DNA of 64,000 nt from Parcubacteria group bacterium GW2011_GWC2_42_12 (GTDB lineage: Bacteria; Patescibacteriota; Patescibacteriia; Patescibacteriales; GWC2-42-12), in NCBI GenBank assembly GCA_000997945.1, contig LCCP01000002.1, positions 14,284 to 78,283 on the forward strand, written 5' to 3'. The position numbers were made by a program, and so were the translations under genes. The notes under the pieces were generated by a model, which saw nothing but the letters and a program-made list of their open reading frames with translations, ran no database searches and was not told the DNA's origin. Of the stretch, positions 2,690 to 63,302 are shown one piece after another (the stretch's first letter is position 1; the number at the start of each line of letters is the position of its first letter).

Positions 2690-2815
2690 ATGGACAGCAC
2701 CGATTATGGTTTTTCCACGACCAAGATAGTTGTGGAAGCGCATCAAGGCAAGGGCTGGGAAGATATGGAGGTGGGCCAGGGCAGTATTTTTTATGTGGAG
2801 CTGCCGCTGGCGTAA
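2690..2815 (+). pseudogene. C-terminal remnant (41 aa) of a histidine-kinase HATPase domain
   Basis: Encodes MDSTDYGFSTTKIVVEAHQGKGWEDMEVGQGSIFYVELPLA, alignable with the C-termini of both HKs in the window (…GYGLYSAKMVIEAHQGRCWAESAG..GSTFFLELP). Confidence 0.5.
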
Positions 2816-2831
2816 AAATAAGCAGTATAAT

Positions 2832-18442: not shown

Positions 18443-18844
18443 TTAAATTAACTTAACTCTTTTATATAAATATACATCGGCTATGGCAAAGATTTTCTTC
18501 GTCCAGGAGAGAAATTCATCGGCCTCTTTCTTAGAAATAAGCGCGCCACCGCCATAAAGATCCCAGTTTCGCTTGGCGCGCATTTCTTGGCCGATAATTA
18601 TTATATCTTGCTCTTTTATGATTTCTGACAGCTTGTTTATCAGCTCGGCCTGGTGCCCTTGGCGCGATTTCACCCGCAGATTATTTTTAGCGCAAACGGC
18701 GATAGCCAATTTCAGCAAAGCGTCATAGGAGAATTTAAAAATAACTTCCGGAATGTCCGAAGTTTGGGCGATCTTTAGATCGCGCGCTGCGGATTTATAG
18801 TATTGATCAATTTGCCTTGAGGTAAAAGCGAATTTTTCAAACAT
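18443..18844 (-). CDS. HEPN-domain protein (toxin-like partner of the upstream MNT)
   Basis: 133 aa, all-helical, contains RVKSRQGH (Rx6H HEPN-like motif); overlaps the MNT gene stop by 1 nt. Confidence 0.45.
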   Translation of the reverse strand: MFEKFAFTSRQIDQYYKSAARDLKIAQTSDIPEVIFKFSYDALLKLAIAVCAKNNLRVKSRQGHQAELINKLSEIIKEQDIIIIGQEMRAKRNWDLYGGGALISKKEADEFLSWTKKIFAIADVYLYKRVKLI

Positions 18845-19389
18845 TAGATTAGTTTTATGGTTTTATGGCCGAAAATATTGGCTATTAATTCGTCTTTTTG
18901 TTTTTTCCTTTTTTTAAGATCCGCCGCGGTTAGGTCAATGATATTAAACTCTCTCTTGAATTCCTTTTCCGTTTTAATCAGCAATCTTTTAGCTTCGATT
19001 GAAGAATGGCTGCCGATGAGGAGGATATCAATATCGCTGGCCGGCCCGAATTTATTATTGGCGTAGGAACCGAAAATATAAGCGTTGGTTAATTCGGGCA
19101 GATCTTTAAGCAGAGCCGTCAGCCGATTTTCCAGGCCATATTTTAAATGATAGAGTTTTTTTAATTCGTTTAACAGGGGATAGCGCCGATTTAGAGAATA
19201 ATGCCTTTGGTTGCCGATTGGCTTGGAGATTAAAACATTTTCCTTTTCCAGTTCTTTTAATTTTCTGTCTAAGTTGCCCGGGTCAAGAGAGAGCGCTCTA
19301 GCCAGTTCGTTGATGTAGTGTTCGGCGCCGGTATTGACGAAGTAATAGCCAAGCAATTTTTCGGTAATTTTTGATTTGAAATCAAGCAT
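18844..19389 (-). CDS. nucleotidyltransferase (MNT-type) with N-terminal winged-helix DNA-binding domain
   Basis: N-terminal HTH (INELARALSLDPGNLDRKLKELEKENVL); C-terminal YIFGSYANNKFGPASDIDILLIG (GS...DxD). Track start 19419 lies inside the operator palindromes, so the start is taken at the downstream Met (19389). Confidence 0.55.
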   Translation of the reverse strand: MLDFKSKITEKLLGYYFVNTGAEHYINELARALSLDPGNLDRKLKELEKENVLISKPIGNQRHYSLNRRYPLLNELKKLYHLKYGLENRLTALLKDLPELTNAYIFGSYANNKFGPASDIDILLIGSHSSIEAKRLLIKTEKEFKREFNIIDLTAADLKKRKKQKDELIANIFGHKTIKLI

Positions 19390-19396
19390 ATTTTTA

Positions 19397-19434
19397 TTGT
19401 AAATATTTACAATAATCATTGTATATTATTACAA
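19397..19434. promoter_or_regulatory. tandem TTGTA-N6-TACAA palindromes (putative TA-operon operators)
   Basis: TTGTAAATATTTACAA at 19397..19412 and TTGTATATTATTACAA at 19419..19434; the first is repeated exactly at 20244..20259. Confidence 0.45.
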
Positions 19435-20389: not shown

Positions 20390-21331
20390 TTATTTTGTTG
20401 CACATTTATAACCAGAACCAATGCTTTGACATTCACCATTAGGCATATAGCTTGGAGTGACAGGAGAAGTGTTGAGTTTTTTGCAATCATCCAGAGACAA
20501 ATTTATTTTAGCAATACAATCTTTCCAATAATTGTTACTGAAACTCGTATAAAAATTATAAAGACAGCATGGCGTAGGATTAGGATCTGCTTTTACTTCG
20601 CAGAAATAGCCCCCGCTTAATTCCTGTTTACATATGCCATACTCTGTATATTTTCCATTAAGGGTTTTTTCACAATAAGTTGGTGAAAAATTTGCTTTAT
20701 CATCGCAAGACCTCCGACCGCTTCCAACATAATTCCAAGCACAGCATGACACCGCAGGACATACTCCTCCCTTTATAAAATTACCAGCCTTTTTATCACA
20801 AGCCTCTTCGCTAAGAACAATTTCGCAAATAGATGTTTCTGGCGAATTCCGGTATGTGCAGCTCCCGTTAACCTGTTCCGCCACCCCTGGTATTTTGGTA
20901 ATCTGTAAATTTACCAGCGCCGGATTAACCGTGCTTAAGATTAAATAAGAGGTTAGGGCCAGAACCAGGCCGGTCAGGGCGGCGCCGATATAGGCCTTGG
21001 CTTCGCCGATTTGCGTGGCGTTGCCGCCGGCCACGATCCAGAGCACGCCGCCGACCATTAAGACCACGGCGGCTAAGATACCGATAATGCCGATGGCGTA
21101 GTTGTAAATCGCCCTAATGTATTTAGCAATCGGCGCAGTAGAGTCGTTTGGATCGAATTTATAACTGCCGCCCGGCGCAAAGTCCTTTTCTGCGCCAGGT
21201 ATGCCGACTTGTGGTTTAAATTCAATCGCCTGACTGGCGACCGGCGCGGCTAATAAGAAAAAGACAAAGATCATTTGTAAAATAAATACGGTCAGAAAGA
21301 AGATGGTTAGAATTTTGGGGAAAGATTTCAT
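20390..21331 (-). CDS. secreted Cys-rich protein with VirB2/TrbC-like pilin N-terminal module
   Basis: Signal anchor, then two hydrophobic helices IYNYAIGIIGILAAVVLMVGGVLWIVAGGNATQIGEAKAYIGAALTGLVLALTSYLILS (VirB2/TrbC-like hairpin); C-terminal ~170 aa with 17 Cys. Paralogous N-terminal module to 50787.. and 53694.. Confidence 0.5.
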   Translation of the reverse strand: MKSFPKILTIFFLTVFILQMIFVFFLLAAPVASQAIEFKPQVGIPGAEKDFAPGGSYKFDPNDSTAPIAKYIRAIYNYAIGIIGILAAVVLMVGGVLWIVAGGNATQIGEAKAYIGAALTGLVLALTSYLILSTVNPALVNLQITKIPGVAEQVNGSCTYRNSPETSICEIVLSEEACDKKAGNFIKGGVCPAVSCCAWNYVGSGRRSCDDKANFSPTYCEKTLNGKYTEYGICKQELSGGYFCEVKADPNPTPCCLYNFYTSFSNNYWKDCIAKINLSLDDCKKLNTSPVTPSYMPNGECQSIGSGYKCATK

Positions 21332-24165: not shown

Positions 24166-24864
24166 TTATTTTCTAAGCTGTTCTATTATTTGTATAAAGA
24201 CATCAAGCGGAACATCGCCGGCTAGCTTATAGCCGTTAATAAAATAGGTCGGCGTGCCGGCGATGCCGAAATTTTGCCCGTCGGACAGATCCTTCTGAAT
24301 TTGGGGAAGATATTTTTTTTGGTTCAGACAATTTTTAAACTTAACTTGGTCGGCGCCGATTTGGTTGGCTAAAGCATTGAGCTCATCGGCCTGGACGGCC
24401 TTATTATCCGTCTGACCCACGCCTTGGTTTTGAAATAATTTGTCATGCATGGGCCAGAATAAGCCCTGCTCGCCCGCGCAGCGTCCGGCTAAAGCCAGAG
24501 TAGCTGAATAATCGGAAACTACCGGGTAATCTCGCCAGATGAATTTTATATCATTTTTGTATTTTAAGCTAATCTCCCTAACGGTAGGAAACGATTGCAA
24601 GCAAACCGGACAAGCAAAGTCGCCGAATTCCACGATGGTGATTTTGGCGTTAGTTGAACCAAGCCAATAACTATTGCTGGCCGCGGCCGGATATTGCTCA
24701 CCAGTTAATTCCCGTCCGGCCTGGCTAAGTTTAAGTTTAGCATTTCTTATTTCACCCAGAAAGTAAAAAGCGCTCGCCGCCAGGAAAAATAAAACTATGG
24801 CCAGGATTATGATTATTAAGACGCCCCACCATTTCCTATACCAAATTTTATTTGAATATTCCAT
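24166..24864 (-). CDS. membrane-anchored DsbA-like thiol:disulfide oxidoreductase
   Basis: N-terminal TM, thioredoxin fold with CPVC active site (FGDFACPVCLQ). Confidence 0.7.
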   Translation of the reverse strand: MEYSNKIWYRKWWGVLIIIILAIVLFFLAASAFYFLGEIRNAKLKLSQAGRELTGEQYPAAASNSYWLGSTNAKITIVEFGDFACPVCLQSFPTVREISLKYKNDIKFIWRDYPVVSDYSATLALAGRCAGEQGLFWPMHDKLFQNQGVGQTDNKAVQADELNALANQIGADQVKFKNCLNQKKYLPQIQKDLSDGQNFGIAGTPTYFINGYKLAGDVPLDVFIQIIEQLRK

Positions 24865-30000: not shown

Positions 30001-30080
30001 AAATAAAGAAGTGGTTGGATGGGAAAGAAATAAAGAAAGTAATTTTCGTTAAGGGAAAGTTAGTTAATGTAGTTATCTAA
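27060..30080 (+). CDS. leuS: leucine--tRNA ligase with an inserted alpha/beta-hydrolase (RBBP9/YdeN-like) domain
   Basis: HVGH (HIGH) motif, CP1 editing domain, KMSKR (KMSKS). About 190 extra residues (nt ~28410..28960) sit between the zinc-knuckle halves HCQAC and CPQCGG: IFIHGYGSSGKEGWRPWLKREL...ILIGGSLGG (GxSxG). Confidence 0.93.
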   Translation: MEKYNHQKIEAKWQKKWNKEKLYKTSGNKDKPKYYVLDMFPYPSGSGLHVGHPKGYIATDIFARAKMMQGYNVLHPMGWDAFGLPTENYAMQNKIHPCAATEKNIATFKRQLGLLGFTYDWDREINTTDPEYYKWTQWTFLKMFERGLAYESYEPINWCPKCQTGLSNEDLEDGKCERCDSVVEKKPMRQWLLKITDYADRLLSDLEKLPAWEESIKEMQRNWIGRKEGINIDYKIEGLDSKLSVFTTRPDTNFGATFIVAAPDSVFTAEKIGSFPNQAEVKKYVEAARHKTELERISEGRKKTGVFTGLNAINNLTGRKMPIYISDFILASVGTGVVVGVPGHDLRDFEFAQAMGLEIIRVVVGADGDTSPITKKEQVQEEAGTMINSGLLDGMNIHDATRKIMDHIETKDWGKKIVSYKIKDWVFSRQRYWGEPIPIIHCQACKNKKYNFIFIHGYGSSGKEGWRPWLKRELEGRGHKAYSPDLPNSLKPNVDEQADFIIKNVELGEDTILIGGSLGGVVIMRILEKIKIKIAKAVFIDSVFKPEFADHDRPDVAAACDWKFNFKKISQASSSFVVLADSDFPVIKKEHSEELAKKFNTSVTYVKPNGQHFSKSATEPEILKIFGNLGIVIVPYEDLPLKLPEVKNYQPTGTGESPLANIKEWVNTKCPQCGGRALRETNTMPQWAGSSWYYLRYIDPKNKTALVDKDKEKYWSPVDFYVGGAEHATRHLIYARFWHKFLFDIGAVNYDEPFTRLQHVGLILAEDGRKMSKRWNNVINPDEIVEKYGADAMRIYEMFMGPFSQPCAWSTKSLIGGRRFLEKIWHFYHQVKLFDCGGVGCDKAPTGLPQLMHKTIKKVTEDIENFHYNTAISQMMIFMNFASQLDSVPRGALENFLKILAPFAPHLTEELWSGLGHPSAKLGTSKQSIFKEEWPKYNPELVKDETINLVIQINGKVRDTVEVFADISEKEAREFALDSEKIKKWLDGKEIKKVIFVKGKLVNVVI

Positions 30081-50786: not shown

Positions 50787-53618
50787 ATGCTTACTCGGCC
50801 AAAATATCCTAGAATTTTGCAGCTAGCTGTCTATTTGTTTATCGCGACAACAGCTATTTTTTTATTGGTCCCGCTAAGCGGGATTTTAGCCGCTAATCTG
50901 GATGTTGGCTTAGAGTACGCGGCCGGCACCGGTTTAAGCAATGCTTTAGACATTAGAATAATAATCGCTCGGATTATTAGGATTGCTCTGGGCTTTTTAG
51001 GCATCATCGCGGTGGGCCTAGTTATGTATGCCGGCTTCCTGTGGATGACCAGCGGCGGCAATGAAGAAAAGATTGAGCAGGCGAAAAAGATATTGCAAAA
51101 CGCGGTTATCGGCTTAATTATCATTCTCATCTCTTTCGCGATCGTCAGTTTTATTTTAAATCTACTGATCGGCGCGACCACTGGCGGCCAGAACGGTCCG
51201 GGTAGCGGGCCACCAAGTCGTTACGGCTTATCGGCTTTAGGCAATGGCATTATTCAATCGCATTACCCGGCTCGTGATCAGAAAGAAGTGCCGCGGAATA
51301 CCAGCATTATTATTTCGTTTAGGGAACCGATGAAAGCCGATACTTTATGCGTTAATCCTATCTCTCAAGGGACAGGCAATCCAGATAAATGTGAAGGGGA
51401 TAAAAATACAACCAAGGGCGATATTAATACAAGTGTAATTGGGATTTTTAAGAAAAGCGACGAAGATAAGTGTATCGATAATAATTTGCCTTTAGCTAGC
51501 TGTCCTTCTTTTGTCAGCGCTGAAGTTTATTCGACTCCTGACGGCAAAACTTTTGTTTTCGTGCCGAATAACTATTTAGGTTCGCCCTCGGAATACATTA
51601 ATTATACGGTTTATTTAGGCAAGGGCTTATTAAGACAGACAGGAGATTTGGCTTTTCCCAGCGGATTTGCAAAAGATTATGGCTGGAGTTTTGAAGTAAG
51701 CAATAAAATTGATTTGACGCCGCCGCAAGTTAACCCGAACGGCGTGTTTCCTCCGCCGGATAATCTAAAAGACATAACGGTGCCGGGAGTCGGCGCGCAA
51801 GCAAGAGGCACGATTATGGTTAATTCGCCGCGGTTTTATAGCGGCGCTTCGGTGTCTGGCATAACTCCGGCAGCCAGCGTGAGTATTAGTGAAAATTGCC
51901 AACAAGATGGAGATTTTAGCATAAATATTGCCAGTATTGCCAATGGTTTGGTTGCCACTCTATACCAAGGCACTTTTGATCCTAATAATCCGATTAATTT
52001 CATTAAGCTTGGTCAAGGAGTAATTAATGGTCAAACTGTTACTTTTTCTTCATGCAATCTAAGATTAACGATTGGCTCCGGTAATTTTGGCGCAGGAAAT
52101 TTATGGACATTTACTATAAATCCGATGATCACCGCCGATACCATAACCGTTGGCAATATAACTTATACTGCCAGCGACGCATCAGGGATCAATAATTTTG
52201 TAGTCGGATCAACAAATTTGACTACCGCTCAGAACATAAGGAATGTTTTAGGAGCCAATCCGGAGGTGGACATAGTGGTCGGAACGGATGATGTCGTTAC
52301 CATTAAAGCTAAACTCGCCGGCGCGGCCGGTAATAGCATCAATTTATCAAGCAGTAATGCCACGAGACTGCCGGTCGTTGCTATGGACGGCGGAGCCGAC
52401 AAAGTAGATAGGGTGACGGTTAACGGCAAAAAAGATCAACCCATGAACTCGGCTCTGCAGATTAATTTCAATGAAGCCATCATGCCGTTAACGGTTTCCG
52501 GCACCAGCGCCGAAGTTAAAGATTTTATTAGAGTGGTTAATGAAGGAGGGACTAAAATCGCCGGAGTAGTATGTACGGAAAATTATGAGTGCTTGTCTTA
52601 TAGATGCGAAGGATCGTCTGGCAATAAAGCATGTGTTACTAGCGATGCTCTAAAATCGGATGGCGATTCCTGTCAGTCTGACGGACAATGTTTATCGTAT
52701 AAATGTGAAAGTAGTAAATGCGTTGGTGATTCTTTGGCTGGCAAATTCGCGGTTTCCAATCAATATCAGACGGTGGAATTTTTATCCGATAAAGAGTGCG
52801 GTTTTAATTCCTGCGGCGAGAAGATTTATTGTTTGCCGGCCAATAGCCATTTAAGGGTTGAATTAAAAGCAGCCAAACTGGTTGACTGCGGCACTGACAA
52901 TTGCGCCAGCAAGAGCCCTTTTAATACTTGCGATTCGGGCAAACCGGCCTGTAAAGATGCCAATGATAAATATTATCCTCAGGCAGATCCGGCCAAGCTT
53001 ACGACGGTTGACGGCGGTATAACCGACGCGGCTTTTAATTCTCTGGATGGCAATCGTGACGGTTCGGCTTATGGTCCGGCGAGTTTTTATAATGAAAATA
53101 TACCGCCAACGGTACCGCCAGCGACTGACGGAGATAATTTTAAATGGTCATTTTTCATCAGTGATGTGCTTGATTTAATTCCGCCGAAGATCAAAGACAC
53201 GATACCAATATTAAAGGATCCGTTGCCGGTTAATTTAACTGACAGGATTACTATCAGCTTTGATAAAGTTATGTTGTCGTCACGCCTAACTACCGGAAGT
53301 TTAATGATTAAAAATGGCCAGCAGAATATACAACATTATTTGCTTAATTTAAGAAACCTTGCTGATCAACCCGTGGGCTATTGGGCGACCAATCTCGGGC
53401 AACTTAACGGAACCGGAGAGATAATTTCCACTGACGCCTATATCAATCATTCCTCATTTAACGCCAGTTCAACTTATAAAGCGCAAGCCGGCTCGGGCTT
53501 AAAGGATATTTATCAAAATTGTTTCTTGCCTTGCGCCAGCGAGTCTGGTGTTTGCGCCGGAGTTGATAGCCAAGAGCCATGCTGTTGCAATGGCACTCCG
53601 GCCGCGAGCTGTCCATAG
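50787..53618 (+). CDS. large secreted Cys-rich surface protein (943 aa) with VirB2/TrbC-like N-terminal membrane module
   Basis: N-terminal signal anchor + hairpin IIRIALGFLGIIAVGLVMYAGFLWMTSGGNEEKIEQAKKILQNAVIGLIIILISFAIVSFIL; extracellular region with paired Cys motifs (CLSYRCEGSSGNKACV, CLSYKCESSKCV). Confidence 0.6.
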   Translation: MLTRPKYPRILQLAVYLFIATTAIFLLVPLSGILAANLDVGLEYAAGTGLSNALDIRIIIARIIRIALGFLGIIAVGLVMYAGFLWMTSGGNEEKIEQAKKILQNAVIGLIIILISFAIVSFILNLLIGATTGGQNGPGSGPPSRYGLSALGNGIIQSHYPARDQKEVPRNTSIIISFREPMKADTLCVNPISQGTGNPDKCEGDKNTTKGDINTSVIGIFKKSDEDKCIDNNLPLASCPSFVSAEVYSTPDGKTFVFVPNNYLGSPSEYINYTVYLGKGLLRQTGDLAFPSGFAKDYGWSFEVSNKIDLTPPQVNPNGVFPPPDNLKDITVPGVGAQARGTIMVNSPRFYSGASVSGITPAASVSISENCQQDGDFSINIASIANGLVATLYQGTFDPNNPINFIKLGQGVINGQTVTFSSCNLRLTIGSGNFGAGNLWTFTINPMITADTITVGNITYTASDASGINNFVVGSTNLTTAQNIRNVLGANPEVDIVVGTDDVVTIKAKLAGAAGNSINLSSSNATRLPVVAMDGGADKVDRVTVNGKKDQPMNSALQINFNEAIMPLTVSGTSAEVKDFIRVVNEGGTKIAGVVCTENYECLSYRCEGSSGNKACVTSDALKSDGDSCQSDGQCLSYKCESSKCVGDSLAGKFAVSNQYQTVEFLSDKECGFNSCGEKIYCLPANSHLRVELKAAKLVDCGTDNCASKSPFNTCDSGKPACKDANDKYYPQADPAKLTTVDGGITDAAFNSLDGNRDGSAYGPASFYNENIPPTVPPATDGDNFKWSFFISDVLDLIPPKIKDTIPILKDPLPVNLTDRITISFDKVMLSSRLTTGSLMIKNGQQNIQHYLLNLRNLADQPVGYWATNLGQLNGTGEIISTDAYINHSSFNASSTYKAQAGSGLKDIYQNCFLPCASESGVCAGVDSQEPCCCNGTPAASCP

Positions 53619-53657
53619 AAATTAATTCAAAGTGGCAGGATTTAAGCAAAATTTTAT

Positions 53658-53699
53658 GTTCGTGAGATTGCTTCGTCGCTGCCGCTCCTCGCAATGACA
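53658..53699. repeat. partial repeat (right half) overlapping the start codon of the giant gene
   Basis: GTTCGTGAGATTGCTTCGTCGCTGCCGCTCCTCGCAATGACAAA; the ATG of 53694.. lies within CAATGACA. Confidence 0.55.
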
Positions 53700-56600
53700 A
53701 AAATCATTAAAAAAATTCTGTTGATTGTTTGCTTGCTGATAGCGGTTTTCACCGTGGCTCATTTTGCTTTGGCGCTTGATGTGGGTCTAGATGAAGTATC
53801 TTCGGAAATTGGTTTAGCAGTGGTTGATCCGAGAATCATCGTGGCTCGAGTTATAAATATTATATTGGGGTTTTTAGGTATTATCGCGGTTGGTTTAATT
53901 ATTTACGCCGGCTGGTTGTGGATGACGGCGGCCGGTAATGAAGAAAGAATCCAGCAGGCCAAGAAAATTTTAATTAACGCGGTTATTGGTTTAGTAATTA
54001 TTCTCTCCAGTTTCGCCATCGCCAGTTTTATTCTTTCTAGGTTAATAGCGGCGACTAGCGGCGGATCAGGTGGCGGCGCCTGTGGCGGCGGTTCAACCTG
54101 CGCTCCTGATCAGCACTGTTGCTGGGATGTTTGCGTGCCTATCACTACTCCTTGCGGATCAATACCGCCCCCCGATTCCAACTCTTTTAGAATTATTTCA
54201 ACTATACCGAGGAATTTAGACGCTGGCGCGATAAGAAATGTGGTGATTAAAGCTTTCTTTAATAAAGCCGCGGATACGGTTAATTTAGATACCAATTTCA
54301 GAGTGGAAAAAATCGCTGATATTGATCCGGTAACAGGAGAGCCAACAGATCCGGCAGATCCAGGCTTACCGGCAATAATTACTAACGCCAGCAGGGCATT
54401 TGCCAATGGCGGCCGGGTGGTTACTTTTAAAGATACCACTGCTTGCGGCGACGAAAAAAATACACCCAATTGCTTTGCCGCCTGGAGCAAATTCAAGGTA
54501 ACGATTAACGGTAGCGCTAATCCCCTTAACGGCGCTAACGGTTTATTCTCAATTGATAATAAACCTCTAAGTTGCAGCGCCGGCTCAATCTGCCAATTTG
54601 TCTTTTCCACTAATAATTTAATTGATGCCAGCGGGCCGCAGGCCGGCATAGTGCCGACGCAGATCTGTAAAACTGAAGTTGGAGTTCCCATGAAGTCAGA
54701 TGCTAATACTGTTACGGGCTGGGGCCGTGATGATGTAGGTATTTCAGGGCTAAGTTTTTATCAGCAAAAGTTAATTCCGCTTCCGGCCGGAACCGAAATT
54801 CAAGCGCTAGTTGTACCGGGTAACGAAGAAAAATATCAGTCAGTTGAACATACTTATCTTACTACCGGCATGACCGTGGGCGATACTTATAAATTGAGAG
54901 TGGAAGCCGTTGATCTGGCCGATCAATTGGCTTCTAGTGATTTTTCTACCACGATCAGACCAGGCCATTGTTGTAATGGCATAAAAGACGGTACGGAAAC
55001 TGACATAGATTGCGGCGGTGTTGGTTTAGATAGATGCGGCGCCTGCGATGGCGCGGCTTGCGCGACCGATATCTCTATACCGACTAATAACAATAACTGT
55101 AGTGCCAATAATAATTTATGCGCTTCGCAATTTTGCACCTCGCAAAATTCTGGTGTGACATCGTGCCAAGATGCTGGCTATGCGGCTGGCACTACCAATT
55201 GCTGTCTCTGCCAGCGCCCGCCGGTTATCACCGGAGTTTTTCCGGTCGGCGGTTTTTGTTCAAACGATAATAATAAGACATGTTTAATTAATGGTGATTG
55301 TGGTACAGGTAATACCTGTAATACGAATACGCCTAACGGCGCGGTTGGCAATTTTGTCACTATCGTGGGCAGGAATTTTGGCGCTAAGCCATCATCAGCT
55401 GGTTCGGGCGTATTTTTTAGCGGCACGACGGCGGGAACTTGGGTGAAAGCTACGCTGGCCGATGATGATAGTCTGGGTAATAGTCATTGTACGGATAATG
55501 TTTGGAGCGACGGACAAATTATTGCTATTGTACCGGCGGGGACGGCGGGTAATCCGATTAAGAATAATAGTCCGATTAATTTTTTCGTCAATACTATTTC
55601 TCGGCCCGGCATCTGCGAGCTTACTCCGAATAGTGGAAAGACGAATGATCTAATTACTTATTATGGCATTGAACTAACTGGTAATAAAGCTTACTTTGGC
55701 AATTGGACAGCCAGCACTTCAGCTCTAAGTTCAATATTCACAGACGCAAGCGGTAAGCAGGGAACCGCCCAAGTTTCCAATATTCAAACCGGCCGAACTA
55801 CCAGCTTTGTCGCTAAGGGATTGGTTTTTAGCAATTATTTAAGTTTTACCAAAGAGCCGGAGCCATATAGCGGACCGGTAATTTCTTCTTTTGATCCAAA
55901 GCAGGGTTCGGCCGGGCAATATGTAACTATAAGTGGCCGAGGTTTTGGTAATACTAAGGGAGCGAGTGAGGTTTATTTTGGCACCGTTGCTGAAGATAAA
56001 AAAGCTGGTTACAATTTTCCGGCAATTTGCGCTGATTCAATTTGGAGCGATAAGCAGGTAATAGTTAAGGTACCGGCGAAGCTAAGCGATCCGGAAGTTA
56101 GAGGAAGTTATAAAATATCCATGAAGATTGCTAAGGGTGGTGGCCAATACTGGGAGATTGATACCAACTCTTTAAATCCATCACAATTTGATTTTAATCC
56201 AGCTCTGCCACTCGCGCCGAGTTTATGTAAGATTGAACCGATCATGGGACAGACCAATAGTCCTATAAGTTTGTGGGGCGAGTATTTTGGAGTAAATAGC
56301 GAAGATTATAGCAAGGTTAGATTTCAACTTAATCATGATCAGGTCGGCGCGGCTGTTACTTCTTGGGGCGTGGATCCGGAAGCAGTGCCAGCAGGCACTA
56401 GAAAACCGGACAAAGCCGTGACTACGGTTCATCAGGATACCGTAACCGGACCGGTTAAGGCGGTTAAGACCGAGGTAATTCAGGGCACTGCCAAGGAGTT
56501 AATAGGCAATGGTTTGAATTTTACGGTTGGCGTTTGCCAGAATACGGCAGAATGCGGTTCAGAAAGTTTATGTTGTTCGATCGGTACGCCTTACGCCGGA

Positions 56601-59600
56601 CAATGCAAAGCTGGTGCTGACGCGCAAACAGTTTGTTTCCCGGAAATAAAATCTTGCGTTTATGAGTGGAATTTTAGTACTTTGGGCAAGACACAATGTT
56701 TAGCAACTCAGACTGTGTGCGGACGTTCTTGCTGTGCTCCAGGCGATGTCTGCGTTGATCCGAACGGCAATAACGGTAACGGCAGGTGTGATAGCATAAA
56801 TTGTCCAAATGGTGTCACCTGCGGTAATAATTGTTGTACAGTCAGGGCTATTTGTAGCGATGGGTTATGTTCATCTCCTCAAGTTTGCGCAGCTGGTCAG
56901 GTATCCTGTAACATTCCAGGCGCGCCAGCCGGCACCCCGCCGAATTGTTGCAATAACGGTCAATGCAATCAGTATACCGGCCAGTGCGATAGTTGCCCGC
57001 CGAACCAACCCGATCAATGCGGCGACGGCAGTTGCTGTAGTGATACGGCTAATTGTCGAGATATTGATAACAATCCAGCCACCACACTAACTGTTTGCGC
57101 TGATCCAGAATCCTGTTCCGGCTATGGCGGCGCGACCCAGGGTTGCTATGGCCAACTGTGCCCGAACTCGCCGGGTAGTTGTTCAACCAGGCCGGCGCAG
57201 ACAAACGTTGATACTGGTGTAAGTTGCGGTAATGATGCTTGCTTAGCCATAAGCCAATGCCGAGGCGCGGCTGTTGGGCAAAATTTGTGTTCCTATAATG
57301 CAAGCTTTAATAAGTGTCAGAAAATTTCTGACATTTGCAGTTTATCAAGGCCATTATCAGGGAACGCAAGTGTCACAGAAAAATGCGGTACGGTTGATAA
57401 TAAAAATGTTTGGTATTATGACAGCAATCAAACCTGCGTTAGCGGTTATACCAAAAGTATTGATAGAAGCAAATGTTTGGGCGCGGCTTGCAATATTTGC
57501 TCAACCGGTTTTAGTTGCCAGTCAGACGGTGGAGCCGGAATTTGCGTTACTAATGCAAATATTTGTCCGGTTAGTTCAATTTGCAATGCCAGTGGTAGAT
57601 GTATTAAAACCGACAACGCCGCTTGCGAATGCTGTTGTGATATAACACAAAACGATAGTACCAACGGTAATAATCCCGGCTGTTGTACCGGTCTTAGCTG
57701 TGGTGGCACTTGCGGCGCAGATACTAGTTTAACTGACGGTCCTGGCGGTAGTAGTAATATAGGGTTGGGCCAATGCACCGGCTGTACTAATGCGGGTTCG
57801 GATCAAGCCGCTCGTAACGCGGCTTGCAACTGTTTGGGTACCAGCGGAAAATTTTGCGATACGGCCGGCGCGGGCGGTAAGGGAGTTTGTAAAGATTGCG
57901 CGCAACTATCAACCGCTGGTTTATGTTCAGGTTTAGGCGCAGGCACCTGCTGTGTTGATGCCAAAAACAGTAATGCTTGCCGCAAAAATACGGCATACAA
58001 TGCCTCTGGAGGGCCGGTTTATGCTACCGGCGCGACAGGAGATGCAAATAATTATTGCGCTTATTATAATTGCGGTACCGGCAGTTCGGCCAATCAGTGC
58101 CAAGCCGCGCCGTTAAAAAACGGTAATTATAAAACAACCACTTGTGATAACAAATGCGCTTTTCCGCCGCGATTCGGCCAGGAGTGCGTCAAGATTTTGC
58201 CAGCGCCAGCCGCGCCGCAATGCGATAATAGCATCTGCGCCGGTTTTTCTTGCTTAAACGATACATATCCAACCGTCTTGACGCCACCCAATAATTGCGG
58301 TATTTGCTGTTGCGATCCGAATGCCGTGACCGATCAATGTAGCGCTATTAATGATAAATTGTCTTGTATAAAAAATAAAGGGTTATGCGCGGGCGCTAAC
58401 CGCGGTTTGTGTTGCGGCTGTTCTAAAGATAGCGAGTGCGGCGATGCGGCCACGGCCGGTTGCGGATCTGACACTTGCTGCCAGGCCAGGCCAAGTGTTA
58501 TTTCTACCGTACCGGCTAATGGAGCGACTAATATTTGCCGCAACACCATGATTAAAGCTACTTTTAATCAGGCCATGCAGATAGGTACTTTGGCCGGCAA
58601 TGTTATCGTGGCCGGTGATTATGGCGCCAGCCAATGCCCGGCCGGCACCGAGTATTTAACCGCTGTTTATAAACCTACTATTCTAGCTAGGGTAAAATCA
58701 TTTTTATCTAAACTGCCGTTGGTTAATAAATTATTCGCTTCTGACGCCTGGGCGCTGCCGGGAAATTTCTGTACTGTTTTGGGCTCGGCCAGCGGCTATA
58801 TTAGAACCGGCGCAAGCGGAGTCGAAACAACCATTATGGAATTTAAATTACAAAAAGCGCTAGAGCCGAATCAGAAATATTATGTTATAATAAAAGGAGA
58901 TTCTGATTTAACCGACGCGGTAAATAACGGAGTTTTAAGCCAAGCTGGCGTTGGCATGAACGGGCAAGGTTATAATTCTGTGAATCCGGCCATCTTCAAC
59001 GGCTTATCTTTTGTTAATGCTAAAATTTGGTCATTTACAACTAAAGCCAGCGCCAGTTCTGACAGCGGCATTTGCCAAGTGGATTCAGTTTCAATCATTC
59101 CGTCAAGTTATTTATTTAAGACGGCGGCAAGCGAAAAGATTTTTCAAGCCACAGCTTATTCGGCGGACGGGCAACCGATCACGCGGCTTCCGGCCGTATA
59201 TAACTGGCGATGGGACTGGACGGTTGATAATCAAGCAGTAGTAAAATTTAAGGAGGGAGTAGCAGCGGCTGATAATTCCGAACAAACCTTAGTGGCCCAG
59301 AACATTAAAGATGCCAATACTTTACTTCATGCCAAAACTACTATTACTCAAGACGCAATTGGTTCAACTATGGGCGCGACCGAAGAAGCCGCGGCGCAGA
59401 TTTATGTATTTTTATGCGCTAATCCTTGGCCGCTTTTTAAAGATGACGGTTCTTGGGAGCCGTGGCGCGACTCGTCTAACTGCAACGTTCCTGGCACCGC
59501 TGGCACCGGTTGTCCAGATACTGGTTTTGAATTATATTATTGCCGCGATGCCGGCGGCGAAGGAACGGCTGATGATTTGCCGGCGATTTTAAGCAATACG

Positions 59601-60989
59601 ACGGTTATTAGAGGCACAAATTTAAAATGCAGGAGTAATAATTTAAATTGTGATGATGGGGCTGGCAGTTGCGCAAGCAAGGTTAAGGGCGATACTTGTG
59701 GTGACGGTAGCGGCAAATGCGATTATAATGTAATTGGTAGCTGTTCAGTAGACGCGGCCGTCGATAGCGCTTGTGGCAGTGGTACCTGCCAAGTTGATCT
59801 TTTAAAAGAATTATATTTTTTCCGAGAGAGCTTGCCTAATGTAACCGGTATAACTTTAGCCACTACGACTAATGATGAGATTAAAAAGGGCGGCAAGGCG
59901 GGACTGACTTGGTCGGCAATTATACTACCTACTGTACCGCCAATACCAGTTTTAGATAAATATAAAGTTTACTATGGCACGGCTAGCGGTAATTATACTG
60001 ATTCAATTGACGCTGGTACGGCTACCAGCAAAGAAATAAGCGGTTTAACCAATGGCAGAAAATATTATTTTGCGGTTACGGCTAAATATAAAAGTGGAGC
60101 TGAAAGCGCTTATTCAAATGAAACCACGGCGATTCCGGCCGATACTACCGCGCCGGCCGTGCCAAGCATTTTATGGGTTTTACCCACGACCGATTCCACG
60201 GCGACTATTGGCTGGCGGTCCAATAGCGACGACACGGTCAATTATAAAGCATATTATGGCGCGTCTAAAGATTCAGCCGGCGCAATCATATATGGCGCGT
60301 CTATAAATGTGAATAAAAGTAAATGCTTTGGCCCCGGCTGCATGGCAACTATTACTAATTTAAATCCAGGCACAACTTATTATTTCGCGGTTGCCGCTTT
60401 AGACGCGGCAGCCAATAAAAGCGCCACATCCATAGAAAAAAGTTTGAAGATGGTTTTGGCGTCCAGGGCCAAAGATTTGGCCCAGCTGGCAGCGGGCTTC
60501 TACCGTTATGCCGGCGAGCATGGCGGCGCGTTTCCTAACTATGGAGCCTCTTGCCTCGGAGTTCCCACAGAACAAAGATGTTGGAATGGCTATGTAACAA
60601 ATTTAAGATGCAGCGACAATAGCGGCAACTGCGTAGACATAGTTAAAGGTCAACCCTGTAGCGATGGCAACGGCATATGTACTAACATCGCTGGCATATC
60701 TGGCAACACAGCCCTTAATAACGCGCTTGCTCCCTATATCTCTAAAATTCCCTTTGATCCTAAAAAACCCAGAAGCGTCGGCGATGCCTATATATATTTT
60801 CAAGGGAATGCTGATATTAACTGTTATGAGGCAACCAGGGAATCTGGAGCTTGGATCGTCTGGGAGCCGGATAGATTATTTTATACAAATGATCGAGACG
60901 ATTCTTTTTGCGGATTAAATAGCCGGACAGCGTGTTGCAGCGCGCTTGGTTGTAGCGCTAACTCGTTTTGCGTTTTTAAAATGAATTAA
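53694..60989 (+). CDS. giant secreted Cys-rich surface protein (2431 aa): VirB2/TrbC-like N-terminal module, Cys-knot-like repeats, IPT/TIG domains, two Fn3 domains, C-terminal type-IV-pilin-like globular domain
   Basis: N-term VINIILGFLGIIAVGLIIYAGWLWMTAAGNEERIQQAKKILINAVIGLVIILSSFAIASFIL; IPT/TIG-like PVITGVFPVGG...GNFVTIVGRNFG and PVISSFDPKQGSAGQYVTISGRGFG; Fn3-like KYKVYYGTASGNYT...NGRKYYFAVTAKY; C-term SRAKDLAQLAAGFYRYAGEHGGAFPN (pilin-like R..DL..L...Y...G.YP) followed by Cys pairs; >200 Cys. Confidence 0.6.
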   Translation: MTKIIKKILLIVCLLIAVFTVAHFALALDVGLDEVSSEIGLAVVDPRIIVARVINIILGFLGIIAVGLIIYAGWLWMTAAGNEERIQQAKKILINAVIGLVIILSSFAIASFILSRLIAATSGGSGGGACGGGSTCAPDQHCCWDVCVPITTPCGSIPPPDSNSFRIISTIPRNLDAGAIRNVVIKAFFNKAADTVNLDTNFRVEKIADIDPVTGEPTDPADPGLPAIITNASRAFANGGRVVTFKDTTACGDEKNTPNCFAAWSKFKVTINGSANPLNGANGLFSIDNKPLSCSAGSICQFVFSTNNLIDASGPQAGIVPTQICKTEVGVPMKSDANTVTGWGRDDVGISGLSFYQQKLIPLPAGTEIQALVVPGNEEKYQSVEHTYLTTGMTVGDTYKLRVEAVDLADQLASSDFSTTIRPGHCCNGIKDGTETDIDCGGVGLDRCGACDGAACATDISIPTNNNNCSANNNLCASQFCTSQNSGVTSCQDAGYAAGTTNCCLCQRPPVITGVFPVGGFCSNDNNKTCLINGDCGTGNTCNTNTPNGAVGNFVTIVGRNFGAKPSSAGSGVFFSGTTAGTWVKATLADDDSLGNSHCTDNVWSDGQIIAIVPAGTAGNPIKNNSPINFFVNTISRPGICELTPNSGKTNDLITYYGIELTGNKAYFGNWTASTSALSSIFTDASGKQGTAQVSNIQTGRTTSFVAKGLVFSNYLSFTKEPEPYSGPVISSFDPKQGSAGQYVTISGRGFGNTKGASEVYFGTVAEDKKAGYNFPAICADSIWSDKQVIVKVPAKLSDPEVRGSYKISMKIAKGGGQYWEIDTNSLNPSQFDFNPALPLAPSLCKIEPIMGQTNSPISLWGEYFGVNSEDYSKVRFQLNHDQVGAAVTSWGVDPEAVPAGTRKPDKAVTTVHQDTVTGPVKAVKTEVIQGTAKELIGNGLNFTVGVCQNTAECGSESLCCSIGTPYAGQCKAGADAQTVCFPEIKSCVYEWNFSTLGKTQCLATQTVCGRSCCAPGDVCVDPNGNNGNGRCDSINCPNGVTCGNNCCTVRAICSDGLCSSPQVCAAGQVSCNIPGAPAGTPPNCCNNGQCNQYTGQCDSCPPNQPDQCGDGSCCSDTANCRDIDNNPATTLTVCADPESCSGYGGATQGCYGQLCPNSPGSCSTRPAQTNVDTGVSCGNDACLAISQCRGAAVGQNLCSYNASFNKCQKISDICSLSRPLSGNASVTEKCGTVDNKNVWYYDSNQTCVSGYTKSIDRSKCLGAACNICSTGFSCQSDGGAGICVTNANICPVSSICNASGRCIKTDNAACECCCDITQNDSTNGNNPGCCTGLSCGGTCGADTSLTDGPGGSSNIGLGQCTGCTNAGSDQAARNAACNCLGTSGKFCDTAGAGGKGVCKDCAQLSTAGLCSGLGAGTCCVDAKNSNACRKNTAYNASGGPVYATGATGDANNYCAYYNCGTGSSANQCQAAPLKNGNYKTTTCDNKCAFPPRFGQECVKILPAPAAPQCDNSICAGFSCLNDTYPTVLTPPNNCGICCCDPNAVTDQCSAINDKLSCIKNKGLCAGANRGLCCGCSKDSECGDAATAGCGSDTCCQARPSVISTVPANGATNICRNTMIKATFNQAMQIGTLAGNVIVAGDYGASQCPAGTEYLTAVYKPTILARVKSFLSKLPLVNKLFASDAWALPGNFCTVLGSASGYIRTGASGVETTIMEFKLQKALEPNQKYYVIIKGDSDLTDAVNNGVLSQAGVGMNGQGYNSVNPAIFNGLSFVNAKIWSFTTKASASSDSGICQVDSVSIIPSSYLFKTAASEKIFQATAYSADGQPITRLPAVYNWRWDWTVDNQAVVKFKEGVAAADNSEQTLVAQNIKDANTLLHAKTTITQDAIGSTMGATEEAAAQIYVFLCANPWPLFKDDGSWEPWRDSSNCNVPGTAGTGCPDTGFELYYCRDAGGEGTADDLPAILSNTTVIRGTNLKCRSNNLNCDDGAGSCASKVKGDTCGDGSGKCDYNVIGSCSVDAAVDSACGSGTCQVDLLKELYFFRESLPNVTGITLATTTNDEIKKGGKAGLTWSAIILPTVPPIPVLDKYKVYYGTASGNYTDSIDAGTATSKEISGLTNGRKYYFAVTAKYKSGAESAYSNETTAIPADTTAPAVPSILWVLPTTDSTATIGWRSNSDDTVNYKAYYGASKDSAGAIIYGASINVNKSKCFGPGCMATITNLNPGTTYYFAVAALDAAANKSATSIEKSLKMVLASRAKDLAQLAAGFYRYAGEHGGAFPNYGASCLGVPTEQRCWNGYVTNLRCSDNSGNCVDIVKGQPCSDGNGICTNIAGISGNTALNNALAPYISKIPFDPKKPRSVGDAYIYFQGNADINCYEATRESGAWIVWEPDRLFYTNDRDDSFCGLNSRTACCSALGCSANSFCVFKMN

Positions 60990-61055
60990 CTTTAATAGTT
61001 TGATCATTGGCGGAATAATAAGATTATTAAAATTATTATTAATAAAATAAATTTT

Positions 61056-61721
61056 ATGTTTGACGAACTAAAGAATAACCAAGCCGTACCGCCGGTTAAT
61101 CAGAGACCCTTAAGCGCGCCGCTAGCTCCGGCCGCGCCGGTCAGGGCTGAAGATATTTTCGCAGAAGTTGATAAGACCGCTAAACCGGAAGTTTTTAGGC
61201 CGAATTCGAGCGATCCTAACTCGCCCCGCGGCACCGTCATACCGCCGGAAACCGGTTGGAAAAAAAATAAGATGGCAGTCCTTGGTTTGTTGTTTGGCGG
61301 TTTGATAGTGGTCGTGGGCGGAGGCTATCTCGGCTTAAAATTAGCGACTACGAGGCCGGAGATTGATAACTCAACTATTATTCAGGAGCAACCTGGAAAC
61401 ACCGAAGTGGAAACGGCGACGCCAGCGCCGGCCGCCGAAGTTGATAATACGGCTGCTCCGATAATTCAGCAACCGGCCGCCGCCGTGGTTTTGGACAGCG
61501 ACCTTGATGGCTTGGCTGACGCGGAAGAAGCAACCTTTGGCACCGATATCAATAATTCCGATACTGATCAGGACGGCTTAACGGACCGGGAAGAGGCCAG
61601 AGTTTATCGGACTGATCCGTTAAATCCGGATACTGACGGCGATGGCTTTAAGGATGGCGACGAAATTAATAATGGCTATAATCCTAAGGGCGCGGGGAAA
61701 CTGTTGGAGATAAATAAATAA
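61056..61721 (+). CDS. membrane-anchored protein with thrombospondin-type-3-like calcium-binding repeats
   Basis: Pro/Ala-rich N-terminus, one TM, DSDLDGLADAEE, DTDQDGLTDREE, DTDGDGFKDGDE (DxDxDGxxDxxE). Confidence 0.5.
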   Translation: MFDELKNNQAVPPVNQRPLSAPLAPAAPVRAEDIFAEVDKTAKPEVFRPNSSDPNSPRGTVIPPETGWKKNKMAVLGLLFGGLIVVVGGGYLGLKLATTRPEIDNSTIIQEQPGNTEVETATPAPAAEVDNTAAPIIQQPAAAVVLDSDLDGLADAEEATFGTDINNSDTDQDGLTDREEARVYRTDPLNPDTDGDGFKDGDEINNGYNPKGAGKLLEINK

Positions 61722-61822
61722 AGCCCCTTTAATAAAGGGGCGGCTCCGACCGCAAGGGAGGAGCGGGGATTTAAAAATGTGAAAAAGCATAAATCCTCCT
61801 AACCCCCTTTGTTAAAGGGGAC
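61722..61822. repeat. intergenic cluster of GC-rich short palindromic elements
   Basis: GCCCCTTTAATAAAGGGGC (61722..61744), GGGAGGAGCGGGG, and TCCTCCTAACCCCCTTTGTTAAAGGGGAC (61794..61822). Confidence 0.55.
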
Positions 61823-61832
61823 ATTATAGAAT

Positions 61833-62855
61833 ATGTTTAATCCTTTAAATTTTTTTAAGAAAAAATTAGCCGAATCGCCGGATTCTCTAAACAAACCAGC
61901 TGAGCCGGTCGTAGAAAAGCAAGTTCAAATTGATGATATTGCCATTCATACTATGCCGGAACGTTTCCGCCATCAGCCAAAAAAGGCGGATAGCGCCAAA
62001 ATCACCGGTTTATTGATTATTGGCGGCGGCGTAGTCATTTTAATTTTAGTTTCAACGGGGTTATATTTTTATTTATTTAAGACGCCAACCGTTACCGTTA
62101 AAGAGGAGCCGTCGACAGCCACGGTCACTCCGGCCAGCGAAAATCAAGTCCAGTCGGAAATTGATCAAAATACGGCCAGTTTAGGGACTTTAACCGCCAC
62201 GACAACTGAACCGACCGTGTTGCCGACTGACGATGATTTAGCCGCGGGAACCGCCAGCAGCGCTCCGGAGACGATTGAACAAGAATTAACCGTTGGTTTA
62301 ACGCCCGGATTGGATAGTGATAACGACGGTTTGACTGACGCGGCAGAAATTATTTTAAGCGCCAGCACTTCGACTCCGGATACTGACGGCGATGGTTATC
62401 TTGATGGCGCCGAATTGTTAAATCTGTATGATCCGGCCGGTTTGGGTAGATTAGCAACTAATCCTAATATCGCGCTTTATGATAATAAAACTTTTAATTA
62501 TACCGCGCTTTATCCGAGCGCTTGGCAAATATCCGTTAACGGCGGCGATGATTCAATCATGTTTAAAGCCGCCGGCAATCAGCTTTTGCAAATTATCGTT
62601 CAAGCCAATACGAGCCAACAGTCGCTTGACCAATGGTATATGGATCAGCTTGGCGCGATTACCATAAATGAGCCGGACAGAGTTTTCGGCGCCAATTGGC
62701 AAGGCATAAAAAGTTTAGACGGCCTGACTTTGTATTTAATGGACCCAAATCAAAAATACATTTTCACTCTGGCCTATAATCCGGGAGAAAATAATATTTT
62801 AGAATACATTAATATTTTTAACATGATGATTAAGTCTTTTAGCTTGAAAGAGTAG
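61833..62855 (+). CDS. membrane-anchored protein with thrombospondin-type-3-like calcium-binding repeats
   Basis: One TM (LLIIGGGVVILILVSTGLYFYLF), DSDNDGLTDAAE, DTDGDGYLDGAE motifs, C-terminal ~150-aa domain. Confidence 0.5.
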   Translation: MFNPLNFFKKKLAESPDSLNKPAEPVVEKQVQIDDIAIHTMPERFRHQPKKADSAKITGLLIIGGGVVILILVSTGLYFYLFKTPTVTVKEEPSTATVTPASENQVQSEIDQNTASLGTLTATTTEPTVLPTDDDLAAGTASSAPETIEQELTVGLTPGLDSDNDGLTDAAEIILSASTSTPDTDGDGYLDGAELLNLYDPAGLGRLATNPNIALYDNKTFNYTALYPSAWQISVNGGDDSIMFKAAGNQLLQIIVQANTSQQSLDQWYMDQLGAITINEPDRVFGANWQGIKSLDGLTLYLMDPNQKYIFTLAYNPGENNILEYINIFNMMIKSFSLKE

Positions 62856-62861
62856 CCATCT

Positions 62862-63302
62862 ATGGGAAAGATTGAAATCAACAACCGGTTAAACCGCAAA
62901 ATAGATTTAAAGCTGGTTAAACGGGTGGCGGTTGAATTCGCGCGCGTTTATAAAATAGAAGATAAAGAAATTTCCCTGGCTTTTGTCGGCGATGCCGAAA
63001 TTAAAAAAATCAATCAAGCTTATCGCGGACTGAAGGAGCCGACCGATGTTTTATCTTTCGCTGGAGCAGGGGATTATTTTGGGGAGATTATTATTGATTA
63101 TAGTCAAATCAAACGGCAGGCCGGTAAATTTAACCATAGCGCTAAACAAGAAATGATTTTTATTTTAGTCCATGGCTTACTGCATCTCTTGGGGCATGAT
63201 GATAAGACGGAAGCGGACCGATTAAAGATGATAGAGCTGGGCCAGAAATTTATATGTCATTGCGAGCGTAAGCGAAGCAATCTCACGAACGGCAAAGAAT
63301 AG
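62862..63302 (+). CDS. ybeY: endoribonuclease YbeY; the last ~17 codons are supplied by repeat copy Q
   Basis: HGLLHLLGHDD (H-x-x-x-H-x-x-x-x-x-H zinc motif); C-terminus ...KFICHCERKRSNLTNGKE reads through TGTCATTGCGAGCG. Confidence 0.85.
   Translation: MGKIEINNRLNRKIDLKLVKRVAVEFARVYKIEDKEISLAFVGDAEIKKINQAYRGLKEPTDVLSFAGAGDYFGEIIIDYSQIKRQAGKFNHSAKQEMIFILVHGLLHLLGHDDKTEADRLKMIELGQKFICHCERKRSNLTNGKE

Follow-up and report, generated by a model that had tools for sequence, protein, structure and literature searches.

A conserved surface-protein cluster of Patescibacteria in which T4SS-pilin-like modules are joined to giant ectodomains

Background

The Patescibacteria live in attachment to other cells and account for a large part of bacterial diversity. 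Their genomes encode small proteins of the Pfam family PF18895 (T4SS_pilin), which are treated as VirB2-like pilins of type IV secretion systems (T4SSs); a published survey records them in 1948 assemblies, in arrays of 2-11 genes, and near virB4 in 1135 assemblies (PMC12102498). The T4SS and a pilin array are essential in one species tested: the array of Southlakia epibionticum, which has six genes, is essential (PMC10633639, PMC12102498, PMC12857230), though its T4SS lacks a recognisable relaxase or coupling protein. PrgB-like adhesins are reported to be absent from Patescibacteria (PMC12102498), and no member of the group has been seen to bear a pilus of PF18895 proteins. Here we describe a locus in a 64,000-nucleotide stretch of Parcubacteria group bacterium GW2011_GWC2_42_12 (contig LCCP01000002.1, positions 14,284 to 78,283; hereafter the window). 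Two adjacent genes, A and B, encode proteins of 943 and 2431 residues that open with a module resembling these pilins, and are followed by two genes for thrombospondin type 3 (TSP3) repeat proteins, TSP3a and TSP3b; a third, 313-residue protein with such a module is encoded elsewhere in the window.

With respect to the known PF18895 pilins, the module looks like a full member of the family, being 45-72% identical to free pilins, and occurs in tandem as they do. However, the known pilins are small (about 120-140 residues) and are encoded in arrays, often near virB4, whereas A, B and the 313-residue protein add 800, 2300 and 170 residues respectively, and the A and B genes sit, together with the two TSP3 genes, within a housekeeping block with no recognised VirB4 nearby. 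The classical TrbC/VirB2/TraA pilins (PF04956; T-pilus structures 8cue and 8exh) have in common with the module a signal peptide, a two-helix hairpin whose mature ends lie outside, and a similar spacing of motifs; the module differs in lacking a PF04956 match, in a loop that is 8 residues longer and in coming from a monoderm, and no cyclisation or processing enzymes were identified for it. The same design, a pilin with a grafted functional module that serves as a minor subunit in a monoderm, is known from the modular type IV pilins PilB and PilC of Streptococcus sanguinis (PMC8179133, PMC9934059). These, however, belong to the unrelated N_methyl superfamily and carry single grafted domains (von Willebrand factor A or lectin) as against 800-3300 residues, and their incorporation into filaments has been shown experimentally, whereas for A and B it is a proposal.

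The role in target-cell contact that we propose below for A and B is also that of several T4SS adhesins, namely VirB5 at the tip of Gram-negative systems, the enterococcal PrgB and the "extended VirB6" proteins with large hydrophilic domains (PMC12857230), to none of which we found a sequence or domain relationship. A and B further recall the large Cys-rich proteins of Peregrinibacteria (PMC4736985), which average about 1650 residues, are predicted to be extracellular and have been proposed to act in attachment; those proteins belong to another lineage and vary between strains, and the parts of that report consulted do not mention a pilin module, whereas A and B form a conserved core locus. 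Thus, VirB2-like pilins and their arrays in Patescibacteria, as well as large Cys-rich extracellular proteins in the candidate phyla radiation, are already known. In the literature that we searched, which was incomplete, we found no description of T4SS pilins fused to ectodomains of 800-3400 residues, of the four-gene cluster or of the co-evolving hairpins, and the published survey and the reviews consulted do not mention fusions to large ectodomains.

The N-terminal pilin module

The features of the locus, in coordinates of the window, are as follows (helices and confidence values are from AlphaFold2, AF2; pLDDT is its predicted local distance difference test).

50787..53618, plus strand: gene A, putative 943-residue modular pilin with a signal peptide, PF18895 hairpin, linker and all-beta, Cys-containing ectodomain
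50949..51176, plus strand: gene A pilin helical hairpin, residues 55-130; AF2 helices 56-87 and 93-130
51177..51245, plus strand: gene A Gly/Pro-rich disordered linker, residues 131-153; pLDDT <50, 25% conserved
51246..53615, plus strand: gene A ectodomain, residues 154-943; a chain of Ig-like beta-sandwiches with Cys-rich inserts
53694..60989, plus strand: gene B, putative 2431-residue modular pilin with a PF18895 hairpin
53829..54056, plus strand: gene B pilin helical hairpin, residues 46-121; AF2 helices 46-78 and 83-121, pLDDT >90
55875..56129, plus strand: gene B IPT/TIG domain, residues 728-812; Pfam PF01833, E 5.8e-11 (segment)
56511..58463, plus strand: gene B Cys-rich region, residues ~940-1590; about 100 of the 156 Cys, 7-18 Cys per 100 residues
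58485..58649, plus strand: gene B Big_5 Ig-like domain, residues 1598-1652; Pfam PF13205, E 4.7e-14; opens the conserved 1600-2050 region
59871..60443, plus strand: two gene B fibronectin type III (fn3) domains, residues ~2060-2250; Pfam PF00041 in two stretches, E 5.8e-14
60456..60986, plus strand: gene B C-terminal type IV pilin head, residues ~2255-2431, by homology to stand-alone N_methyl proteins
61056..61721, plus strand: TSP3a, 221-residue single-pass membrane protein; TSP3_bac 44.1 bits; hydrophobic segment at residues 71-97
61833..62855, plus strand: TSP3b, 340-residue single-pass membrane protein; TSP3_bac 31.1 bits; transmembrane segment at residues 52-85; C-terminal domain without known fold
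20390..21331, minus strand: third, more distant paralogue, 313 residues; pilin module and a Cys-rich extension of about 170 residues (16 Cys)

An earlier reading of this DNA (the original prediction) had reported three open reading frames (ORFs) of 943, 2431 and 313 residues that open with nearly the same module, and their coordinates are exactly as it gave them. The shared module is likewise borne out: in a BLASTP comparison A and B are 59% identical over their first 126 residues (E 7e-33) with no significant similarity beyond the module, and a hidden Markov model (HMM) built from free pilins recovered exactly these three proteins among all six-frame ORFs of at least 50 residues in the window (E 1.8e-44, 3.3e-40 and, for the 313-residue paralogue, 1.1e-28). 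The module of this last protein shows 29-31% identity to those of A and B. Against the PF18895 gathering score of 26.6 bits, the whole protein and the isolated module score 28.4 and 32.6 bits for A and 27.4 and 33.6 bits for B, all above the cutoff, while the 313-residue paralogue falls slightly below it (23.9-25.9 bits, whole and isolated). A search with the first 128 residues of B returned 406 proteins, and the best 120 of these are nearly all stand-alone PF18895 proteins of 119-220 residues from Patescibacteria with 45-72% identity. The free pilins (about 125 residues) and the three modules align end to end, from the signal peptide through to the ...AT end, and the fusions run on into a Gly-rich linker exactly where the free pilins stop. 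Because this alignment covers the full length of the free pilins, the modules are complete pilins bearing an extension rather than fragments. This sequence evidence shows the module to be homologous to the Patescibacterial T4SS pilins.

The module comprises a signal peptide, a short acidic N-terminus with a DPR motif, two long hydrophobic helices and, between them, a GNEE..AKK loop. It spans about 120-130 residues with the signal peptide and about 95 in its mature form, somewhat more than the ~90 residues first supposed. The GGN loop motif that had been described is present in all three proteins in the form G-N-x-x-x-I-x-x-A-K, though gene B reads AAGNEE rather than GGN. The resemblance among the paralogues is not confined to hydrophobicity and extends to the polar positions D, P/R, N, E, A, K and T. 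The AF2 model of the gene B module has a signal helix (residues 2-27) ahead of the two hairpin helices (46-78 and 83-121), with a pLDDT above 90 for the hairpin; that of the 943-residue protein (mean pLDDT 84, predicted template modelling score 0.70) consists of the hairpin, a disordered linker at 131-153 and an all-beta multi-domain body. The hydropathy profile agrees with a signal peptide followed by a two-helix hairpin. Searches of NCBIfam gave a below-cutoff similarity to NF045849, a pilin-like conjugal transfer family of mycoplasma integrative and conjugative elements (E 5e-9), as well as TSP3-driven matches to CglD and MtsD.

The original prediction had likened the module to the VirB2/TrbC hairpin. 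It is indeed a T4SS-type pilin by way of PF18895, but none of the three modules matches PF04956 even at E<=10, and at the level of sequence the tie to classical VirB2 is only suggestive. An hhalign comparison of the pilin profile with Agrobacterium VirB2 (its sequence checked against PDB 8cue and 8exh) gave a probability of 58.9% and an E-value of 9.3e-5 over 55 columns, in which the DP..I..LG..G..AV..G..WM motifs line up and the module has the loop longer by 8 residues. Three related free pilins (P0049, P0095 and P0097) carry both PF18895 and PF04956. The same profile had no match among all PDB sequences, and a Foldseek search of PDB with the AF2 hairpin returned generic hairpins (ion channel helices, CHMP4B and ATP synthase subunit c; best E 0.45), with neither VirB2 nor TraA among the 50 matches listed, the fold being too simple for diagnosis.

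Constraint on the hairpins of A and B

Examination of conservation along the gene A family revealed the hairpin as its most conserved segment, with a mean pairwise identity of 52.6% against 25-46% elsewhere (29-46% for the segments of the ectodomain), and it retains the invariant Gly and the polar positions of the pilin family. These patterns in the sequences indicate that the hairpin is under strong constraint. We then compared the A and B hairpins across 51 related loci and found that the two from the same genome are on average 68% identical, whereas between genomes A-A, B-B and A-B pairs alike reach only 53-54%; when the pairing was shuffled 1000 times, no shuffle rose above 55.1%. Both the polar N-terminus (63.5 vs 39.1%) and the loop share in this same-genome excess. 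Had the two modules arisen by an ancient duplication and then diverged independently, the reverse would be expected, and therefore they must have undergone either periodic homogenisation or co-evolution. For the window, recent gene conversion was rejected as a source of the hairpin similarity between A and B, as the DNA alignment has many third-position differences.

The ectodomains and the C-terminus of gene B

In both A and B the region past the linker is a very large ectodomain, all-beta and rich in disulfides. Beyond its hairpin, gene A is recognised by Pfam as containing Big_5 besides PF18895 (28.4 bits), and its ectodomain is built of Ig-like folds resembling the surface-layer (S-layer) protein SbsC and alpha-2-macroglobulin. 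In gene B the hairpin is followed in order by a Gly/Cys linker, beta domains, TIG, a Cys-rich stretch of about 650 residues, Big_5, a conserved domain, two fn3 domains and a type IV pilin head. The TIG-like and Fn3-like domains that had been proposed for gene B are thus recovered by Pfam, which adds Big_5. The enrichment in Cys also stands, though the count is 156 (6.4%) rather than "hundreds" and these are concentrated at residues ~900-1600; the Cys-rich region itself (residues ~940-1590) has no Pfam match. A and B end in ...CCCNGTPAASCP and ...SFCVFKMN respectively, and in A, B and the TSP3 proteins Pfam detected no surface-layer homology (SLH) domain, LPXTG sortase signal, cell-wall-binding repeats or other known S-layer or cell-wall anchor. 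The topology is predicted to be N-out, loop-in and C-out, which would place the large regions outside the cell, as the original prediction supposed. Given the Ig-like and lectin-type domains encountered among these proteins, an adhesin role for the ectodomains is plausible.

That two TSP3 proteins directly follow gene B, another element of the original prediction, is confirmed by TSP3_bac (PF18884) scores of 44.1 and 31.1 bits (cutoff 25); repeats of this type bind calcium.

The C-terminus of gene B had been noted as type-IV-pilin-like, and it is indeed homologous to the heads of true prepilins. Its last ~180 residues are 47% (E 1e-39, 97% of the query), 38% (E 1e-27) and 35% (E 5e-6) identical to three stand-alone proteins of 185-191 residues that are recorded with PF07963 N_methyl, and N_methyl was re-confirmed for the two closest (35.7 and 29.8 bits; cutoff 21.2). 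The domain itself has no Pfam match. It begins after the second fn3 domain, carries an extra Cys-rich insert of about 26 residues and lacks the prepilin leader, the N_methyl segment and the hydrophobic alpha1-N helix, such that the GFTLIELLVV of its homologues has no counterpart. Among the 120 gene B homologues described below it was found only in a near-identical copy; the head is a lineage-specific addition to gene B.

Separately, we observed that another gene B homologue, P0133, has a different tail of about 130 residues after its fn3 domains (…DPWSHPYFIDEN…; DPWSHPY). This tail has no Pfam match and resembles a GspG-type pseudopilin head by eye only, an unverified lead; if it were a true pseudopilin head, pilin heads would have been added to such giant proteins more than once.

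Distribution and genomic setting

The architecture had been called uncommon, a description that did not survive wider sampling: the genes form a conserved core-genome cluster in their clade, and when one genome per species was scanned, at least 578 proved to encode a relative of gene A. At E<=1e-30 and with clustering at 50% identity, the gene A family numbers 687 representatives, typically of 850-1000 residues, and gene B has at least 287 homologues. The 120 of the latter that were retrieved are 1392-2718 residues long, and every one joins a giant protein to an N-terminal pilin module; the Cys-rich region is kept in 119 of them and the 1600-2050 region in all 120. Public annotations name these proteins "IPT/TIG domain-containing", "Ig-like domain-containing", "fibronectin type III domain-containing" or "hypothetical" protein.

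Across 78 loci, and as far as each contig extends, the gene order is near-invariant: signal peptidase I, histidyl-tRNA synthetase (HisRS), in some cases YqeY, RelA on the opposite strand, a pilin-module protein of ~900 residues, one of 1500 to 3400 residues, two TSP3 proteins, YbeY and DgkA. FtsA and FtsZ come next in four related loci whose gene calls were inspected. One cluster locus lies on the complete 869,590-bp genome CP129471.1, and a 99% identical copy of gene B is present on an independent Joint Genome Institute (JGI) contig. The named carriers are Falkowbacteria, Buchananbacteria and "Parcubacteria", and the five that we looked up all belong to the GTDB class ABY1; the locus is a four-gene cell-surface cluster of Patescibacteria, probably of this class. 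The cluster is conserved and vertically inherited; a mobile or variable island was considered and rejected, given the synteny conserved in the 78 loci.

Between orthologues the ectodomains share 34-36% identity, as against 47-65% for the flanking housekeeping proteins, and can be aligned over at least 86% of their length. In Buchananbacteria the second gene (L062:7323-17708; also L064 and L070) keeps the pilin module and its position in the locus, while its ectodomain is unrelated, about 3400 residues long, and contains a ConA-like lectin domain (Laminin_G_3), Big_5 and DUF4215 Cys-rich repeats; this looks like a cassette-like swap of the displayed part.

Otherwise the window consists of chromosomal housekeeping genes: rpoB, rpoC, leucyl-tRNA synthetase (LeuRS), HisRS, TopA, DprA, Der, Pth, pyruvate:ferredoxin oxidoreductase (PFOR), RelA, YbeY, DgkA, LepB and LytR. 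The stop codon of TSP3b lies 6 nt ahead of the ybeY start (62855-62862), and because of this short gap the surface-protein cluster is probably co-transcribed with ybeY and dgkA, which in related loci are followed by ftsA and ftsZ. A promoter and terminator scan of the cluster gave counts near those of shuffled sequence and was uninformative.

Secretion machinery and free pilins

Although a pilus-anchored system had been among the possibilities raised by the original prediction, Pfam recognised no VirB4, VirB6, TrsD, coupling protein or type IV pilus ATPase among the window ORFs of at least 100 residues. Likewise, inspection with Pfam of the gene calls of the four related loci revealed no VirB4; the remaining related loci, which were not screened for VirB4, have no pilin array beside the cluster. 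As no such machinery is recognised near the cluster, we infer that any link to a pilus machine acts in trans. Consistent with such a link, four of the five cluster carriers checked have VirB4 elsewhere in the genome (Table S1 of PMC12102498), and ABY1 genomes have short-pilin arrays too.

The closest free pilins are encoded in arrays of 5-8 PF18895 genes (L083:6715-12131, L084:4815-12582 and L086:6251-12755). In these three unrelated Patescibacteria genomes the array lies in every case directly downstream of a gene for an extracellular solute-binding protein (SBP_bac_1), which in two of them is itself just preceded by an NTP_transferase gene, and no Pfam-recognisable VirB4 was found within 10 kb of the arrays. 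The first members of the arrays, at 196-292 residues, are pilins with modest extensions like the 313-residue protein of the window. Since such extended array pilins and the 313-residue form lie between the bare pilins and the giants, the PF18895 family presents a continuum that runs up to proteins of 3400 residues.

Interpretation

Taken together, our analysis leads us to propose, with a probability of roughly 0.4, that A and B are modular minor or tip pilins, which join each other and the short pilins of a VirB4-dependent apparatus in a common assembly and thereby display adhesin-like ectodomains. After export by the Sec pathway the hairpin would reside in the membrane, the basic loop facing the cell interior and the C-terminus the exterior, and the ectodomain would be shown on a flexible tether and folded oxidatively. 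The hairpin would have been kept as a working pilin rather than a mere anchor, packing against its partner (A with B) and against the short PF18895 pilins that such genomes encode at other loci, so that A and B might be incorporated as minor or tip subunits of a pilin assembly made by a VirB4-type system. There they could take the place of the adhesins otherwise missing from Patescibacterial T4SSs and bind the surface of a host or partner cell, with the TSP3 proteins as potential calcium-dependent partners or scaffolds.

Several points weigh against this proposal. No VirB4 is recognised near the cluster, either in the 64-kb window or in the four related loci, and no PF18895 pilus has been seen in any Patescibacterium. 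PF04956 does not match the modules, and a search with the modelled fold cannot separate their hairpin from any other helical hairpin. An ectodomain of 800-2300 residues cannot sit on every subunit of a filament, and the folds of the ectodomains are generic Ig-like domains found in S-layer proteins too. The position in a housekeeping block, 6 nt before ybeY and near ftsA-ftsZ, suits a structural role in the envelope as well, and the co-evolution of the hairpins could stem from an older gene conversion rather than from physical contact.

Some of these points belong equally to an alternative that we regard as a serious if somewhat doubtful contender, namely that the pilin-derived hairpin is a static membrane anchor tethering giant structural proteins (an S-layer-like coat, an envelope spacer or a determinant of cell shape) with calcium-binding TSP3 partners, with neither filament nor T4SS involved. 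The deeply conserved setting by ybeY-dgkA-ftsA-ftsZ and the minimal gap to ybeY would suit such proteins, as would the lack of a VirB4 or pilin array alongside in the loci examined, the likeness of the Ig-like ectodomains to SbsC and alpha-2-macroglobulin, and the fact that the ectodomains align at full length across species, as expected of a structural protein. However, a plain anchor need not keep the whole pilin, including the signal peptide, DPR N-terminus and loop, at 53% identity, the highest in the protein; nor does it require the co-evolution of two hairpins in their polar parts. Moreover, Pfam detected neither an SLH domain nor any other known S-layer or cell-wall anchor, and the lectin-type domains of relatives point to ligand binding.

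More speculative, and in our view improbable, is the idea that the hairpins of A and B assemble in the membrane, alone or together with free pilins, into an oligomeric channel or platform for uptake or for contact-dependent exchange with a host, with the ectodomains as the docking device, PF18895 proteins not being pilus subunits at all. The free arrays directly after SBP_bac_1 in all three genomes with no recognisable VirB4 adjoining them, the conserved and basic loop motif, and the essentiality of the Southlakia array in a T4SS devoid of recognisable relaxase or coupling protein would all be in keeping with it, but the hairpin model shows no testable polar pore-lining face and the published survey places pilin genes near virB4 in 1135 assemblies (PMC12102498). 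That the giant ORFs are artefacts of annotation or assembly, arising from wrongly joined genes or chimeric contigs, found no support beyond the metagenomic origin of the sequences, and is effectively refuted, since architecture and gene order recur in 78 independent genomes at species level, the complete CP129471.1 among them, and since a 99% identical copy lies on the JGI contig.

Returning to A and B as modular minor or tip pilins, a bolder form of this proposal, which we consider unlikely as it stands, would hold that they are the first "modular conjugative-type pilins", with their co-evolving hairpins assembled as a heteromeric cap, or as a complex of minor subunits, on a VirB4-dependent pilus of a monoderm. 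Such a complex would stand in for the missing VirB5 and PrgB adhesins and bear host-recognition modules of 800-3300 residues, which in this genome end in a type IV pilin head. If true, Patescibacteria would use the PF18895 hairpin generally as a polymerising scaffold for display, and the cluster would be a direct handle on host recognition in ABY1.

Other observations in the window

One further gene in the window may bear on the Cys-rich surface proteins:

24166..24864, minus strand: DsbA-like thioredoxin; Pfam Thioredoxin_4 and DSBA

It is a probable helper for extracytoplasmic disulfide formation in these proteins, its association with the cluster being an inferred one; a CPR-enriched family of MdbA-like oxidoreductases has been described (bioRxiv 10.1101/335083).

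The window also contains two small ORFs for Pol-beta-type nucleotidyltransferases (18443-19419, minus strand, and 2129-2545, plus strand), one of which is directly followed by a 133-residue ORF with no Pfam match; these are possible toxin-antitoxin pairs adjoining the 313-residue pilin paralogue. The LeuRS ORF (27060-30080, plus strand, 1006 residues) has an alpha/beta-hydrolase-like insert (Ser_hydrolase/Abhydrolase_6, residues 453-610) after the editing domain. The ORF at 2730-4706 (plus strand, 658 residues, TTG start) matches RuvA only at residues 467-656, the first 466 residues being without a Pfam match, and may be over-extended or hide a separate gene. Scans of the 64-kb window for tRNAs and with Rfam detected nothing.

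Conclusions

No adhesin has been identified for the T4SSs of Patescibacteria, and the A/B pair offers candidates for this role. As large, antigenic and easily tagged proteins, A and B are also markers for the destination of PF18895 proteins, whether in filaments, in a membrane platform or in the envelope. The presence of a type IV pilin head on a protein anchored by a T4SS pilin amounts to domain shuffling between two unrelated pilus systems. More generally, these fusions indicate that a pilin hairpin can carry enormous cargo, which bears on how conjugative-type pilins are assembled.

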